A DNA stretch of 62,370 nt from an uncultured bacterium (GTDB lineage Bacteria > Patescibacteriota > Minisyncoccia > Phycocordibacterales > GWA1-40-21), in assembly GCA_903822075.1 (NCBI GenBank), contig CAIJNK010000022.1:1-62370 (forward strand), written 5' to 3'. This document shows, one piece after another, positions 22,111 to 53,757 of the stretch (positions within the stretch are counted from its first letter, which is position 1; every line of letters begins with the position of its first letter). Both the position numbers and the translations under genes were made by a program. The notes beneath the pieces were generated by a model. It saw nothing but the letters and a program-made list of their open reading frames with translations. It made no database searches and was not told the origin of the DNA.

Positions 22111-23841
22111 CTACATCTTCTCCGGCACTTTGATACCGAGGAGATTCAAACCGTTTTTCATGACGATGGAGAAAGCTTGGGTCAAAGCCACTTTGTAAGG
22201 AGACTTGGGGTCATTTTTATCCACCACGATTTCCTGCGCATAGAATGAACTGAAAGCGGAAGCCAGCTCCGTCAGATAAATGGCCAAATAATGCGGTGCA
22301 TATTCTTTTCCTGCCCGCTCCACGATTTCCGGAAAGCGAATCAGGAGTTTTGGCAATTCACCGACCTCCGCTTTTTGTTCAGAATTCATGTTCGCCTTTA
22401 TTCCCTCTTTTTCCGCCTTCTCCAAAATCGATTTCGCGCGCACGCAGGCATATTGCAAGTAAGGTCCGGAGTCGCCTTCAAAAGACAGTGATTTGTCAAA
22501 ATCAAAAATAATATCGCTACCAGCCACTTGCTTCAGGACGGAGTACTTTATCGCCCCCACGGAAATCATCTCCGCCATCAACTCCTTTTCTTCTGACGTA
22601 AAATCCCGATCCTTCATCTTTTCCAAAATGATCTCCTTCACCTGATCCAAAAGTGAAATACCGGTAATGATGTTGCCTTTTCTGGAAGACATTTTACCTG
22701 TGGCAAACCGAAGCATGCCATGACCAATATGGACAGTCTTATCTTTTACTTTTGGTCGCAAAAGCCCGATGACCGTAAGTAAAACTTTGAAATAATCGTC
22801 TTGTTCGTTTCCAGTGATCACAATCGAGGAATCAAAATCATATAATTCCATTTTCTTCACGCCAAGACCAAGTTCCTTAGCTTCATATGTTGGCACCCCT
22901 TTAGAGTTAACAAATACTCTGGTGTGCAGGCCGTAATTCTCACCCTTAAAAATAACGGCGCCTTGACTTTTTTCGAGAATATTTTTTTGGAGTCCTTCGT
23001 CAACAGCTTTCAGTGCATCAGTAATAACCTCACTCTCCCAAAAATTATGCGCAAAATGTGTTCCTAACCTCTTAAAGACTTCCTGAAAATGTTCAATGCT
23101 GATTTCCCTCCCCCACTCATATAGCTTGTTTATGTGTTCATCGCTTTTATCAAAAATAACTTTGTTTAAGGTATCAATTTCGGCTTTAGCCTCGGGATTA
23201 TTTTCATAAGCAGTTGAACCCTCCACATAAGACTTGGCCCAAAAAGTCAGCTGCTCTTTGGGACTGTTTTTTTTCACTTCAGAAATTCTGCTTTCCTGTT
23301 CCAAAACGGCATATATGGACTTGGCCACATGTAAACCTACATCCCCGCCATATGACACTCGAATTATTTTAGAGCCAAAGGCTTCAATAATTCTTGAAAC
23401 TGCTTCACCAATGGAGTTACTCATCAGATGCCCGATATGAAACTCCTTAAATGGATTTGGATCGGTATATTCAATGATTGTTTTTTGTTTCTTTAAAATA
23501 TCGTTCTGACCATAGAGTTCTTTTTTATTTAAAATTTTTTTCACCTCCCCCATAAAATACGATGGTGACAGATAAAAATTGATAAATCCCGGCCCGGCCA
23601 TCTCGATTTTATCTACCTCGCTTATTTTATTTTTATTTAAAATCTCAACGATTTCCTTGGCAATCTGGACCGGGCTTTTCTTCAACGGTTTGGACAGCAT
23701 CAAAGCCACGTTCGTTGCAAAATCCCCATGACTCATTTCGTCCGGGTGTTCCAAGGTAAAAGCTGGAATATCCACCTCGGAAATTCCTAAATCGATTACC
23801 GCCTTCTTTATTAAATCCGTAATTTGCTCCTTAATATTCAT
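22111..23841 (-). CDS. argS: Arginine--tRNA ligase
   Basis: HGDFATNVA, GPGFINF, EYTDPNPFKEFHIGH, KMSSRKG, GPYLQY. Confidence 0.97.
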   Translation of the reverse strand: MNIKEQITDLIKKAVIDLGISEVDIPAFTLEHPDEMSHGDFATNVALMLSKPLKKSPVQIAKEIVEILNKNKISEVDKIEMAGPGFINFYLSPSYFMGEVKKILNKKELYGQNDILKKQKTIIEYTDPNPFKEFHIGHLMSNSIGEAVSRIIEAFGSKIIRVSYGGDVGLHVAKSIYAVLEQESRISEVKKNSPKEQLTFWAKSYVEGSTAYENNPEAKAEIDTLNKVIFDKSDEHINKLYEWGREISIEHFQEVFKRLGTHFAHNFWESEVITDALKAVDEGLQKNILEKSQGAVIFKGENYGLHTRVFVNSKGVPTYEAKELGLGVKKMELYDFDSSIVITGNEQDDYFKVLLTVIGLLRPKVKDKTVHIGHGMLRFATGKMSSRKGNIITGISLLDQVKEIILEKMKDRDFTSEEKELMAEMISVGAIKYSVLKQVAGSDIIFDFDKSLSFEGDSGPYLQYACVRAKSILEKAEKEGIKANMNSEQKAEVGELPKLLIRFPEIVERAGKEYAPHYLAIYLTELASAFSSFYAQEIVVDKNDPKSPYKVALTQAFSIVMKNGLNLLGIKVPEKM

Positions 23842-23910
23842 AAGCCTTATCATACTGCAAAAAGCTTAAATTATAAAGGGGCGGGTCGCTCGCGCAACTC
23901 GCCCCGCCTA

Positions 23911-32592: not shown

Positions 32593-32681
32593 TTATCCCT
32601 TTACTTCTACCCACACATACTTTTCTGCTGAAAAGTTGCGCCGGGCCCGCCTCGCATCGTCATGCTCCGGCCGATAGAAGT
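32593..32681 (-). repeat. Non-coding element at the rplK 3' end (antisense plus direct copy of the gene end around a C(AGCA)G hairpin)
   Basis: 32593-32612 matches 32682-32701 at 18/20; 32673-32681 is the reverse complement of 32692-32700; hairpin 32619-32636. Confidence 0.7.
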
Positions 32682-33107
32682 TTATCCCTTCACTTCTATC
32701 CCCATAGAACGGCAAGATCCCTCGATAATCTTCATGGCGGCATTAATATCGTTGGCATTTAAGTCCGGCATCTTCTTTTCGGCAATAGCCCTGACCTGTG
32801 CTTTAGTGATTGTTCCTGCCTTCTTAACCAGCTGCTTACCAGAACCACCCTCAACTCCAGCCGCCTTCAGGATCAAACCGGTTGCTGGCGGCGTCTTTAG
32901 CTTAAAATCATAGGTTCGGTCCTCGTAAACGGTAATTTCCACTGGAACAATATCCCCCATCATTTTCACGGTGGCGGCATTGAATTTCTGCACAAAATCA
33001 CCAATATTGATACCAGCCTGTCCCAGAGCCGGACCCACTGGCGGAGCCGGATTAGCTTTACCAGCGGGAATCTGCAACTTTAATTTTTTTGTTATTTTTT
33101 TTGCCAT
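32682..33107 (-). CDS. rplK: 50S ribosomal protein L11
   Basis: [36 protein letters not shown]. Confidence 0.98.
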
Positions 33108-50976: not shown

Positions 50977-51162
50977 GGGTGGCTACCGGGCAGTTTCCCT
51001 CGGCTAAAATTTTTTCGCCAAAAAATTTTCCCTGGGCACCGGCTCACCTATTTTTTCTGCTGAAAAAATTTGGCTCCGCCGTTCACCTCCCGGACGCAAG
51101 CAAAATCATTTGCTTGCTTAGCCACCCAAACAAAAAGACGCTCAGATGAGCGCTTTTTATTT
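50977..51162 (-). repeat. Non-coding element downstream of tRNA-His (split antisense copy plus direct copy of the tRNA 3' end, C(AGCA)G hairpin)
   Basis: 50977-50990 equals 51163-51176; 51081-51093 plus 51119-51130 reproduce the tRNA T-arm and acceptor in inverted orientation; hairpin 51050-51069. Confidence 0.75.
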
Positions 51163-51163
51163 G

Positions 51164-51235
51164 GGTGGCTACCGGGAGTTGAACCCGGACAGAGAGCTCC
51201 ACAAGCTCGCGTGCTACCGCTACACCATAGCCACC
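51164..51235 (-). tRNA. tRNA-His(GTG)
   Basis: G-1, acceptor GTGGCTA/TAGCCAC, C73, anticodon loop TT-GTG-GA, GTTCAAC T-loop. Confidence 0.93.
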
Positions 51236-51944: not shown

Positions 51945-52739
51945 TTACTCGATGATGAAACCGCGACTAGCCAAGATATTGTGCAGAGCTGACGGATCCG
52001 TCTTCGGAACAACGTGGGTCATCGTTGCCCAAGTTGCTGGCAGATTGTATTTTCCACCAAACGCGACGTCATCGGCCTTCAACTCTGCCGCCAATTCATC
52101 CGTTGCCCGACCAGTGCCGGTAATGAGAACGGTCACCCAACCCTGCTTGATGGACATAATGATCTCGTCCTTCGTCACAACGCCACCATTCCAGGAAATC
52201 AAGCCGAGTGACTTGAACCCTCCACAGTCGCGCCACTGATTCATGAGGGCGGCATACGTTTTGACATCGCCATCCCAGTCTAGACTACCGTCCGCCCCGT
52301 TTTGAACGACGAGGATCCCCAACATGCTGGGATTTGGAAAGGTTCCGTACTGATCCAGGACCAGACGAGACTCTTGCTGCAGAGTCATCATTTCCACCCG
52401 TGGCACCGTGCCAAGAGCGACGCAACCCTGATTCTCCGCCGCGATAATCCCGGGCACATCGGTCACCATGGGATCAATTGCTCCAGCTTTGGTGGTCTGC
52501 CGCGTGGCTCCTGACCAGACAAGCCCCACATATCCCCGAAATGCTTCCTTGAAAAAGGCCATCATCTGCGCCTTGTCGTCAGGACCCATTCCTTTGCATC
52601 CGCCCGCCAGGCGAATTGCAACCTTTTCATGGGCTGTCGTTCCCAACAGCGCAAAGGCTGAAGGCAACCCCTCTTTTGCATCCATAACCAACAACCTGAC
52701 TTTACCGCCGGGGGCGGTCACGCTATACGGACTGTTCAT
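51945..52739 (-). CDS. SLOG superfamily (LSDAT/TRPM N-terminal-like) protein B
   Basis: RLAGGC, WSGAT, LGTVP, VVQ..W..D, WNGG, LITGTGRATDELA. Confidence 0.7.
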   Translation of the reverse strand: MNSPYSVTAPGGKVRLLVMDAKEGLPSAFALLGTTAHEKVAIRLAGGCKGMGPDDKAQMMAFFKEAFRGYVGLVWSGATRQTTKAGAIDPMVTDVPGIIAAENQGCVALGTVPRVEMMTLQQESRLVLDQYGTFPNPSMLGILVVQNGADGSLDWDGDVKTYAALMNQWRDCGGFKSLGLISWNGGVVTKDEIIMSIKQGWVTVLITGTGRATDELAAELKADDVAFGGKYNLPATWATMTHVVPKTDPSALHNILASRGFIIE

Positions 52740-52740
52740 C

Positions 52741-53553
52741 TCATGCTCCTTGTGCAAGGGCAAACTTAAAAGTATTTCGGTGCCCTTCCGCCGAAACACC
52801 CCACACCCCAAGCTTTGCGAGCACACCCCGCAAAGACTCGGATGTTTTTTCTGCAACAAGCACATTTGGGTGCTCGTTTAAGAAATCATTATCTTCAGCC
52901 AGCTCTCCCGTAACCCTCCCGCTTCCGCTAACCAAGACGACCGGCCAACCACGCTCGGCGGTTTCCAGAATTTCTTTCTTGGTAACCGAACCACCGTTGT
53001 AAGAAATGAGCACGGATTGCCAATTGGCATAATCGCGCAAATTCTTGACGATATCCAAACAAACACGGTACTCTGCTTCCCACTCAACTCCGGTATCAAC
53101 GGACTGCTGAACAAGCAAACAGGCTTCTTGGTTGGGATGGATAATAGAGTCATAGGCGGCCCCGGACTCACCGGAAACCACCATACCCAAACCAGGAACC
53201 AATTTGAGCTCCGAAGTTCTGGGAACAACTCCCAAAATCACCGCGTCCGGCGCTCTAATTTTGATTCTTGTCGGTATCTCGGTTACAGATGGGAGTATCT
53301 TACCCCCTTCTTTAGAAATCATTCTGGTTCCGCCAAAAAGTATTCCGCCGTCAAAGCCTTTCAAGGCCTCGGCAAAAAGATCATACATACCGTCGGCGTC
53401 AGCCGCAGACATATTTCCACATCCACCGGTTATCCTTACAACAACCCGTGATGGTGCGCTCGTTAAACGCAGAGCGAACCTGATTGAACTTTCCCCCTTA
53501 TTTTGCATATATAAGGAGGGTATCACACGACCGTCATGATTCTGGTCATTCAT
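52741..53553 (-). CDS. SLOG superfamily (LSDAT/TRPM N-terminal-like) protein A
   Basis: RITGGC, FGGT, LGVVP, LLVQ..W..E, YNGG, GWPVVLVSGSGRVTGELA. Confidence 0.75.
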   Translation of the reverse strand: MNDQNHDGRVIPSLYMQNKGESSIRFALRLTSAPSRVVVRITGGCGNMSAADADGMYDLFAEALKGFDGGILFGGTRMISKEGGKILPSVTEIPTRIKIRAPDAVILGVVPRTSELKLVPGLGMVVSGESGAAYDSIIHPNQEACLLVQQSVDTGVEWEAEYRVCLDIVKNLRDYANWQSVLISYNGGSVTKKEILETAERGWPVVLVSGSGRVTGELAEDNDFLNEHPNVLVAEKTSESLRGVLAKLGVWGVSAEGHRNTFKFALAQGA

Positions 53554-53673
53554 ACTTCCTCCCTTCTATCTTGCAAAAGATAAAGATGGTGAATAGACAA
53601 AATTAACTTCAAAGAACCCACTGTCTAAAACAGTATCACATTAAACAAATAAAGTCAAATACTATTTCTTATG

Positions 53674-53757
53674 TGCCTGGGAGAGGACTTGAACCTCCAT
53701 GCCCGTAAGGGCGCTACCACCTCAAGGTAGTACGTCTACCAATTTCGCCACCCAGGC
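53674..53757 (-). tRNA. tRNA-Leu(GAG)
   Basis: GCCTGGG/CCCAGGC acceptor, CTACC-TT-GAG-GT-GGTAG, long variable arm, GTTCAAG. Confidence 0.95.

Follow-up and report, generated by a model that had tools for sequence, protein, structure and literature searches.

A family of small, protein-less structured cassettes behind tRNA and translation-related genes in Patescibacteria

What lies directly behind the tRNA-His gene of contig CAIJNK010000022.1, a stretch of 62,370 nucleotides from an uncultured bacterium of the Patescibacteriota (hereafter the window, meaning the whole stretch), and how did it get there? An initial annotation had described at this place an element carrying both an antisense and a direct copy of the tRNA 3' end, and had proposed either a miniature non-autonomous element or a structured RNA trailer. 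We found a second element of the same layout behind rplK in the window and about 70 further copies elsewhere, nearly all of them in Patescibacteria. They form a cassette family specific to Patescibacteria, also called Candidate Phyla Radiation (CPR) bacteria, about 88-190 nt long, protein-less and highly structured, and the comparisons given below show that it exists throughout the phylum. The family is previously undescribed and far from the known kinds of element. The evidence leads us to view the 186 nt behind tRNA-His (51162-50977) as an inserted copy of such a cassette with a confidence that we would put near the midpoint.

An antisense and a direct copy of the gene end in the window

All features of the tRNA-His locus lie on the minus strand. 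The tRNA-His(gtg) gene was recognised at 51163-51234 by ARAGORN and by Rfam (RF00005, 58.4 bits), and the encoded bacterial G-1 of tRNA-His stands at 51235. Repeat analysis identified the last 14 nt of the gene (51176-51163) as copy 1 of a direct repeat whose exact copy 2, CCCGGTAGCCACCC, occupies 50990-50977, at a spacing of 186. With up to two mismatches allowed, 0.12 matches to this 14-mer are expected by chance, and a chance origin of the direct copy is excluded. The gene is followed by a spacer (51131-51162; terminator scan and inverted-repeat analysis) made of an A-tract, a GC hairpin and a U-tract. This spacer looks like an intrinsic terminator, the terminator scan giving a terminator-like hairpin GCGCTCATCTGAGCGT at 51153-51138 and then CTTTTTGTTT, and it is also the tip of a long inverted repeat that joins the end of tRNA-His to an antisense arm.

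The antisense arm comes in two parts. Part a, TTTGGGTGGCTA (51119-51130), is the 12/12 complement of TAGCCACCCAAA, that is, of the acceptor 3' strand plus the trailer, to which the trailer contributes AAA; once the A/T tracts are counted, this inverted repeat covers 19 nt at 95%. Part b, CCGGGAGGTGAAC (51081-51093), complements GTTCAACTCCCGG, in the T loop and T stem, at 12 of 13 positions. Between them stands P2, a 9-bp hairpin GCAAGCAAA/TTTGCTTGC with loop UGAU (51117-51096, part of 51094-51118), which splits the arm at the acceptor/T-stem junction, exactly where the initial annotation had seen the antisense copy divided. Then come GGCGGAGCC (51080-51072) and the hairpin ATTTTTTC(AGCA)GAAAAAAT, or UUUUUUC(AGCA)GAAAAAA (51069-51050). 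In the fold and the alignment, core module 1 (51040-51081) is formed by a helix P4, CGGC/GCCG, around GGA-[GCC, the UUUUUUC(AGCA)GAAAAAA hairpin, GGU]-GA. Core module 2 (50991-51039, from the fold) comprises GUGCCCAGGG, a 10-bp A/T hairpin with loop GGCG (51029-51006) and AGCCGAGGGAAACUG, after which copy 2 begins. The hairpin spacer, the antisense copies, the hairpins and the 14-nt direct copy were thus all recovered where the initial annotation had placed them.

The antisense arm and copy 2 are mutually complementary, and their pairing closes a 150-nt segment into a compact multi-helix fold with a predicted energy of -67.3 kcal/mol (z = -5.2). In an alternative pairing, the antisense copy engages the 3' half of tRNA-His itself, the whole region then reaching -131.7 kcal/mol (z = -9.0). 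A triple scan of the whole 62-kb window returned the tRNA-His locus as the only GC-containing direct-antisense-direct triple, and no other such triples with different cores were found in it. A second tRNA-like gene or an intron-containing tRNA-His was rejected as an explanation because the 5' arm does not go on to follow the tRNA 5' strand: its continuation is antisense to the T stem and the T loop (12/13, and 12/12 in the compared locus L015).

The 14-mer TTTTCAGCAGAAAA of the tRNA-His element is found at one further site of the window, directly 3' of rplK. The element present there (32593-32700, minus strand; covariance-model match of 75.3 bits at 32609-32673) has the same layout as the one behind tRNA-His: gene end, antisense, core and direct copy. 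The gene end GATAGAAGT (32700-32692) is followed by the stop codon (32684-32682) and by the antisense arm ACTTCTATC (32681-32673), and the last L11 codons and the stop codon make up a hairpin with this element-borne arm, the stop codon lying in the loop. Next come GCC-GGA-[GCAU GACG AUGC]-GA-GGC and a long hairpin with C(AGCA)G (GGCGGGCC plus a hairpin as in the tRNA-His element). The direct copy of the rplK end, GGGTAGAAGTAAAGGGATAA (32612-32593), includes the stop codon and is slightly decayed; a terminator follows at 32566-32529. The other GGCGGNGCC sites of the window (44896, 41479 and others) are within coding sequence and unrelated. Below, elements of the tRNA-His type are called class B and those of the rplK type class A.

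Recurrence of the family, host-matched arms and conserved scaffold

The initial annotation had suggested a motif search in related genomes and a covariance model, and both were productive. A scan with GGCGG(N)GCC-N3-12-TTTTCAGCAGAAAA, in which each prokaryotic species was represented by a single genome, gave 58 loci, against about 1-2 expected by chance (a rough estimate); all but one (57/58) belong to Patescibacteria, both Parcubacteria/Paceibacterota and Saccharibacteria being represented. Numbers such as L061 or L077 label the compared loci. A second pattern run on metagenomes added 13 true copies, and the covariance model produced about 50 strong matches (E<1e-9) in 571 kb, including copies without the exact motif. 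The approximately 70 copies beyond the window are located behind at least nine different tRNAs, rplK, pth and infB, with one inside the gene of arginyl-tRNA synthetase (ArgRS). Class B was found with tRNA-His, Ser, Met, Val, Lys (two kinds), Ala, Asp and Gly; class A was found behind rplK in at least 24 species, and the copies at pth and infB also lie 3' of these genes.

Nothing in Rfam corresponded to these elements. Only tRNAs passed the gathering threshold in the window; at E<=10, nothing credible was obtained over the tRNA-His element, the rplK copy or a Saccharibacteria copy, and 20 further loci returned tRNA and rRNA only. These Rfam results, at gathering and at permissive thresholds, speak against transfer-messenger RNA, tRNA-like RNAs, signal recognition particle RNA, RNase P, riboswitches, known or self-cleaving ribozymes and ribosomal protein leaders. 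Elements of such design were likewise not described in the papers covered by a full-text literature search.

In nearly every copy, the arms match the copy's own host gene and the scaffold is conserved. The initial annotation had considered that the motif might occur genome-wide without host-specific 3'-end copies; what we observed is that arms match their own hosts. In class B, the 5' arm is antisense to the acceptor 3' strand and T arm of its own tRNA, as in L015, where AGGGATTCGAAC is the exact 12/12 complement of GTTCGAATCCCT, and the 3' end of most copies is a direct copy of the own tRNA end, beginning in the T loop. On average, the longest stretch of exact antisense was 10.6 nt to the own tRNA versus 5.9 nt to other tRNAs, and the direct copy 12.2 versus 5.8 nt. 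Direct repeats measure 5-30 nt overall (exactly 14 nt in the window, 15-30 nt in L001, L015, L029, L059 and L078). Long arms that reach the tRNA body go with long direct copies, whereas short trailer-directed arms do not: the short forms L028, L066 and L068 pair mainly with the last tRNA bases and the trailer, and their direct copy is 5-6 nt long. In class A, the arm is paired with the own L11 codons in 99.1% of cells, 4 of the 9 pairs changing on both sides, and the alternative helix between the arm and the direct copy is paired in 89.4%. Comparison of the tRNA-His element of the window with that of L072, located at tRNA-Asp, shows that one scaffold occurs with arms matched to different tRNAs, since P2 (26/26) and core module 1 (44/44) are identical between the two and the arms are different, each matching its tRNA.

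The scaffold itself exhibited extensive covariation. Class A is paired in 98% of cells, with 10 pairs showing double changes, and contains invariant G.U pairs, so that the fold belongs to the sense strand; the class B core is 91% paired. Across 13 class B copies, 10 of the 11 pairs of the core module 2 hairpin change on both sides in a compensatory manner. Compensatory changes were also found between the window element and its ortholog L061, including in core module 2, and in P2 a C:G pair is replaced by U:A in both L061 and L078, again a compensatory change. Throughout the family the GGA/GA internal loop is invariant, its nucleotides being constant in 24/24 class A copies. NNC-GGA-[hairpin]-GA-GNN is a module common to classes A and B; GG and another hairpin come after it, and the two hairpins trade places between the classes. 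These data show that selection acts on the structure of the scaffold, and does so on the sense strand. The hammerhead-like CUGACGA of class A turned out to be just a covarying hairpin.

Several additional observations were made on the compared loci. Other cassettes with the same arm layout are stacked at the same tRNA ends in L029 (2330-2620) and L020 (4290-4550), with different cores and without the CAGCAG hairpin (e.g., GGCGGAGGTCCGCGAAGCC...), which indicates a superfamily wider than our search motif. In the Saccharibacteria loci L012, L013, L039, L043 and L005, the element is followed by a conserved hairpin CCTCCAGAGGGGGTGGGCACCGCTGGAGG (e.g., L013 500-536) with a 15-nt conserved loop and no Rfam match, partial copies of both halves of which flank the Saccharibacteria element; the unit of L013 apparently has its own AT-rich upstream region. 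In L009 (1-2473), from a Spechtbacterales metagenome-assembled genome, the 23S rRNA gene is interrupted by an intron encoding a LAGLIDADG-type protein, and a class A-type element is convergent to the 5S rRNA gene. The family is not a copy of the 23S L1 stalk: the CPR 23S L1-stalk sequence (L009) shares a GGGAG-type motif only.

Filled and empty sites and the origin of the cassettes

Orthologous tRNA-His loci were reached via homologs of the flanking Cob_adeno_trans protein. In L077, where this protein is 86% identical and tRNA-His is identical, unrelated A-rich sequence directly follows the tRNA; the terminator, the arm, the core and the second copy are all absent from this site, and L077 is an empty tRNA-His site. 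In the filled locus L061, the sequence flanking copy 2 is similar to the trailer found at this empty site. This likeness suggests that copy 2 is most likely the displaced original tRNA-His end, in which case the inserted block would consist of copy 1, terminator, arm and core. L078 (83% identical) is filled with a core of another subtype; its T stem now reads CTGGG/CCCAG, a change that is mirrored in the arm and in the 25-nt direct copy alike. The tRNA-His site of L080 is filled too, and a further element is present in L080 (262-420) behind tRNA-Leu(gag), in an L19-tRNA-Leu synteny shared with the window, where the orthologous tRNA-Leu (53600-53757) has no element. The arm of this tRNA-Leu element matches the tRNA end at 16/19 positions and its direct copy at 18/19, and its loop is AGUA, not AGCA. 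The initial annotation had left room for the same fixed sequence in all relatives with no empty sites; the L077 site and the filled/empty tRNA-Leu pair show instead that sites are filled or empty among close relatives, through gain or loss.

Two other features of this neighbourhood were recorded. L079 (2811-2945) has a diverged tRNA-His with an altered acceptor stem, GGTGATTA/TAATCACC; about 60 nt downstream, an isolated piece of the 3' end of the other allele, TAGCCACCCC, looks like a leftover from a previous replacement. In the window, two adjacent paralogous genes (51945-53553, minus strand) stand between tRNA-Leu and the gene for Cob_adeno_trans; they are annotated as Pfam LSDAT_prok (PF18171) in the identical contig L074 and are absent at the equivalent position in the relatives L077-L080.

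Further signs of insertion came from other hosts. Tandem arrays were observed in L070 (two identical 158-nt units), L042 (two 88-nt units), L059, L029 and L041, the units running in the order sense copy, small loop, antisense arm (with P2) and scaffold. Among the rplK loci, copy 2 in some cases (L047, L050 and L040) codes for a different L11 C-terminus than the live gene, as expected of a displaced original end. A related class C element with long variable inverted arms lies antisense within the ArgRS reading frame of L021 (4640-4790), where the insertion is in frame and adds 25 residues relative to the ArgRS of the window (22111-23853). In addition, at the rplK loci L053 (2375-2500) and L004/L023 the gene end is present three times, or a further terminator hairpin intervenes between it and the arm, which suggests repeated insertions at one rplK site.

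From these data, we consider it an evenly balanced proposition that the family consists of non-autonomous insertion cassettes that integrate within the last 6-30 nt of a gene and regenerate the gene end. The site would be the 3' end of a tRNA or translation-related gene, once the inside of a gene. The cassette would supply a substitute for those 6-30 nt, in many cases along with a terminator; it would also contribute the arm antisense to this gene end and the two-module hairpin scaffold with its invariant GGA/GA loop, and the original gene end would be left displaced behind it. Integration could proceed by recombination or copy-choice inside the short stretch common to cassette and gene end (Campbell-type), which would keep the gene intact and leave a direct repeat. 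A circular or multimeric unit would be a dumbbell whose stem replicates the target, the sense copy being paired with the antisense arm, a small hairpin closing one end and the scaffold the other; the tandem arrays would be its multimers. The moving form would probably be a folded single strand, of DNA or RNA, since a unit of 88-190 nt cannot form a double-stranded circle. The scaffold could serve as a handle for a trans-acting host or helper enzyme, and once the cassette is inserted and transcribed, the direct copy would sequester the antisense arm, so that the tRNA could still fold.

A more specific version, which we advance tentatively and regard as doubtful, is that insertion is programmed by base pairing: the scaffold, as RNA or single-stranded DNA, would recruit an enzyme of Patescibacteria and the antisense arm would pick the gene 3' end. 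The arm would be masked by the sense copy until needed, and specificity would be changed by re-matching the arms, of which the identical scaffolds at tRNA-His and tRNA-Asp are an example. The guide function of the antisense copy is one that we infer.

A number of points weigh against insertion of a mobile cassette. The L077 site could have arisen by precise deletion between direct repeats and would then not be a never-occupied site, and the occupation of the rplK site in many distant lineages could reflect ancient vertical inheritance of a functional 3' untranslated region (3'-UTR) RNA, not repeated insertion. The model does not itself account for the re-matching of an arm to a new gene, which might come about through template switching at the terminator by way of a quasi-palindrome. 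Inspection by eye of the open reading frames (ORFs) in the 62 kb of the window brought to light no recombinase, transposase or reverse transcriptase. The proposal of a miniature non-autonomous element made by the initial annotation gains from the host-matched recurrence, the empty sites, the tandem arrays and the in-frame ArgRS copy, whereas its proposed mobilisers did not come forward, no HUH/RAYT, IS110 or tyrosine recombinase gene having been seen by eye in the window. All 20 motif matches in viral contigs (IMG/VR) were chance matches in coding sequence without the hairpin, and a viral origin, phage- or plasmid-borne, was rejected on this basis. Transcription of the tRNA-linked element is uncertain because a terminator-like hairpin stands between the tRNA and the element. 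Finally, the real gene end is a better pairing partner for the antisense arm of class A than copy 2 is, a preference that the target-replica model does not require.

This last point fits better with a cis-acting structured RNA module, a co-transcribed 3'-UTR or trailer in which the antisense arm clamps the gene 3' end. Such a module may work as a switch with the direct copy as alternative partner, in 3'-end protection or processing, or by binding L1 or another protein at GGA/GA. The conserved sense-strand structure, with its invariant G.U pairs and many compensatory changes, is what an RNA would show; the L11 coding end and the arm have kept their helix almost without flaw, with the stop codon in the loop, and the alternative helix with copy 2 is also preserved, at 89%. 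The class A element lies inside the rplK transcript, before the rplK terminator, and its GCC-GGA-[GGCU..AGCC]-GA-GGC resembles the L1 site of E. coli 23S rRNA (GGGAGGCU...AGCCGACC) and fits the published description of L1-binding mRNA (PMC3616713). On the other hand, one scaffold common to at least nine tRNAs, rplK, pth and infB, plus one antisense copy in a coding region, does not sit easily with just one regulatory role. The element is dispensed with in close relatives (L077), a terminator precedes the tRNA-linked copies, rplA is never 3' of rplK in class A loci, and insertion is what tandem arrays and displaced gene ends that have diverged are typical of; the L1 likeness concerns a short motif and draws in part on the M. 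vannielii site. On balance, we find an RNA module rather unlikely as the account of the family. The RNA-device and mobile readings are mutually compatible, and the structured trailer envisaged by the initial annotation may survive in that form: the conserved sense-strand G.U structure and the preference of the arm for the real gene end suggest that the element may also act as RNA.

Direct repeats running from the T loop to or past the tRNA 3' end, tandem stacking and a replacement 3' end supplied to a protein gene are classic features of tyrosine-integrase elements, and all are seen here. The cassettes might then be ordinary remnants of integrase-mediated integration at a tRNA, attL and attR having been joined by internal deletion of a prophage or island and the core being the leftover of an attP arm. 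We hold this to be very unlikely, as some 70 independent copies share their tiny size and a conserved covarying scaffold, none contains an integrase fragment, a double-stranded circle would need more than the 88-190 bp of a unit, attP sites have nothing equivalent to the antisense arm and the motif is missing from the viral contigs. Template switching at quasi-palindromes is an established mutational process, and the tRNA end, the terminator and the antisense arm together form one long near-perfect palindrome; switching at terminator hairpins during replication, by extending a quasi-palindrome, could account for arms that stay host-matched without any dedicated element or function. It leaves unaccounted for a scaffold conserved across phylum-level distances and different genes, the placement of P2 exactly at the acceptor/T-stem junction, the direct copy and the covariation, which weakens this explanation to the point that we judge it highly improbable.

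Even conservatively, the family accounts for a large number of intergenic segments, strongly folding and without annotation, that follow tRNA and ribosomal-protein genes throughout the phylum, and its members are markers of recent gain and loss between close relatives. They show that gene 3' ends are replaceable by element-borne copies in Patescibacteria, and the GGA/GA module offers a testable link to ribosomal protein L1. If the arms specify the target, the cassettes would represent a new and very small (about 100-190 nt) form of nucleic-acid-guided placing of DNA at chosen sites, in the reduced genomes of CPR bacteria, where mobile DNA is little known.

Comparison with known systems

The RNA side of the comparison concerns ribosomal protein L1. 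The L1-binding mRNA motif has a 6-12-bp stem and an internal loop with a G-A pair and an unpaired A, and is often located between rplK and rplA (PMC3616713). Like the L1 sites of the 23S rRNA helix 77 region and of rplK/rplA mRNAs, the cassettes have a short helix with 5' GGA and 3' GA in a longer stem; P4, GGA/GA and the short hairpin fit the published description, class A stands directly after rplK, and 7+6 nt of its commonest form, GGAGGCU..AGCCGA, agree with the E. coli rRNA site. The GGA/GA internal loop resembles such L1-binding sites. However, class A is downstream of rplK, not upstream of rplK/rplA, the motif is also found behind tRNAs and the rest of the cassette has no counterpart in L1 sites; rplA is not 3' of rplK in the window nor in any of about 40 related loci.

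Among mobile elements, those integrating at the 3' ends of tRNA or protein genes through a tyrosine integrase are alike in the direct repeat of the gene 3' end from the T loop, in the element-borne copy that regenerates the gene, in the displacement of the original end downstream and in tandem accumulation. The cassettes differ from them by having no integrase or other gene, a length of 88-190 nt, an RNA-like scaffold, an antisense copy of the target and one scaffold for many targets; no integrase gene or remnant was present in the non-coding units, nor was an integrase-like ORF seen in the window by eye, without a Pfam scan. In the attP(+) site of phage CTX (XerCD) and the attC sites of integrons, sense and inverted target-like copies also pair on one strand to imitate a duplex target, and integration leaves direct copies at the ends with one inverted copy inside. 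These systems rely on a sequence- or structure-specific recombinase and one fixed target (dif, attI), whereas the cassette arms vary by host gene. Recombinase boxes (XerC/D arms; RYYYAAC/GTTRRRY) were not found, the arms sharing no sequence from one copy to another; GTTRRRY is not matched by the GTTC of the T loop, and rplK arms lack GTTC. A casposon-like insertion, with its fixed 14-15-bp duplication, does not agree with repeats of anywhere between 5 and 30 nt and was rejected.

Rickettsia palindromic elements (RPEs) and miniature hairpin repeats resemble the cassettes in being short, protein-less and strongly folding, with unknown mobilising machinery, and RPEs are tolerated inside RNA genes and in frame in protein genes, as is the ArgRS copy of L021. 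They differ in their conserved ends and in having neither host-matched arms nor gene-end duplication. Unlike miniature inverted-repeat transposable elements, the cassettes have no conserved terminal inverted repeats, the arms differing per copy, and no fixed-length duplication (5-30 nt).

Parallels to the arm itself are found in systems that carry a guide. In the IS200/IS605 single-strand transposons and their miniature derivatives, a guide selects target and cleavage sites through base pairing and lies just 5' of a subterminal hairpin, as cassette arm part a lies directly 5' of P2, and strand-specific folding and the lack of a fixed-length duplication are common to both. The guide of these insertion sequences is 4-5 nt long, versus 8-25 nt for the cassette arm, and they have no target duplication and no sense copy, whereas the cassettes have both; a Y1 (HUH) transposase gene was not seen by eye in the 62-kb window. 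Tandem interspaced guide RNA (TIGR) arrays, dual-strand guides reported in CPR, are not comparable, being 36-nt units beside Tas genes. Group II introns, through their exon- and intron-binding sites (EBS/IBS), and IS110 elements, through their bridge RNA, also carry sequence complementary to their own insertion site, by which specificity is altered. Unlike them, the cassettes have no intron or ribozyme core and no DEDD recombinase, and no ORF adjoins the element. The two guides of the IS110 bridge RNA address different target halves, whereas the arm and the direct copy of a cassette represent the same sequence and pair with each other.

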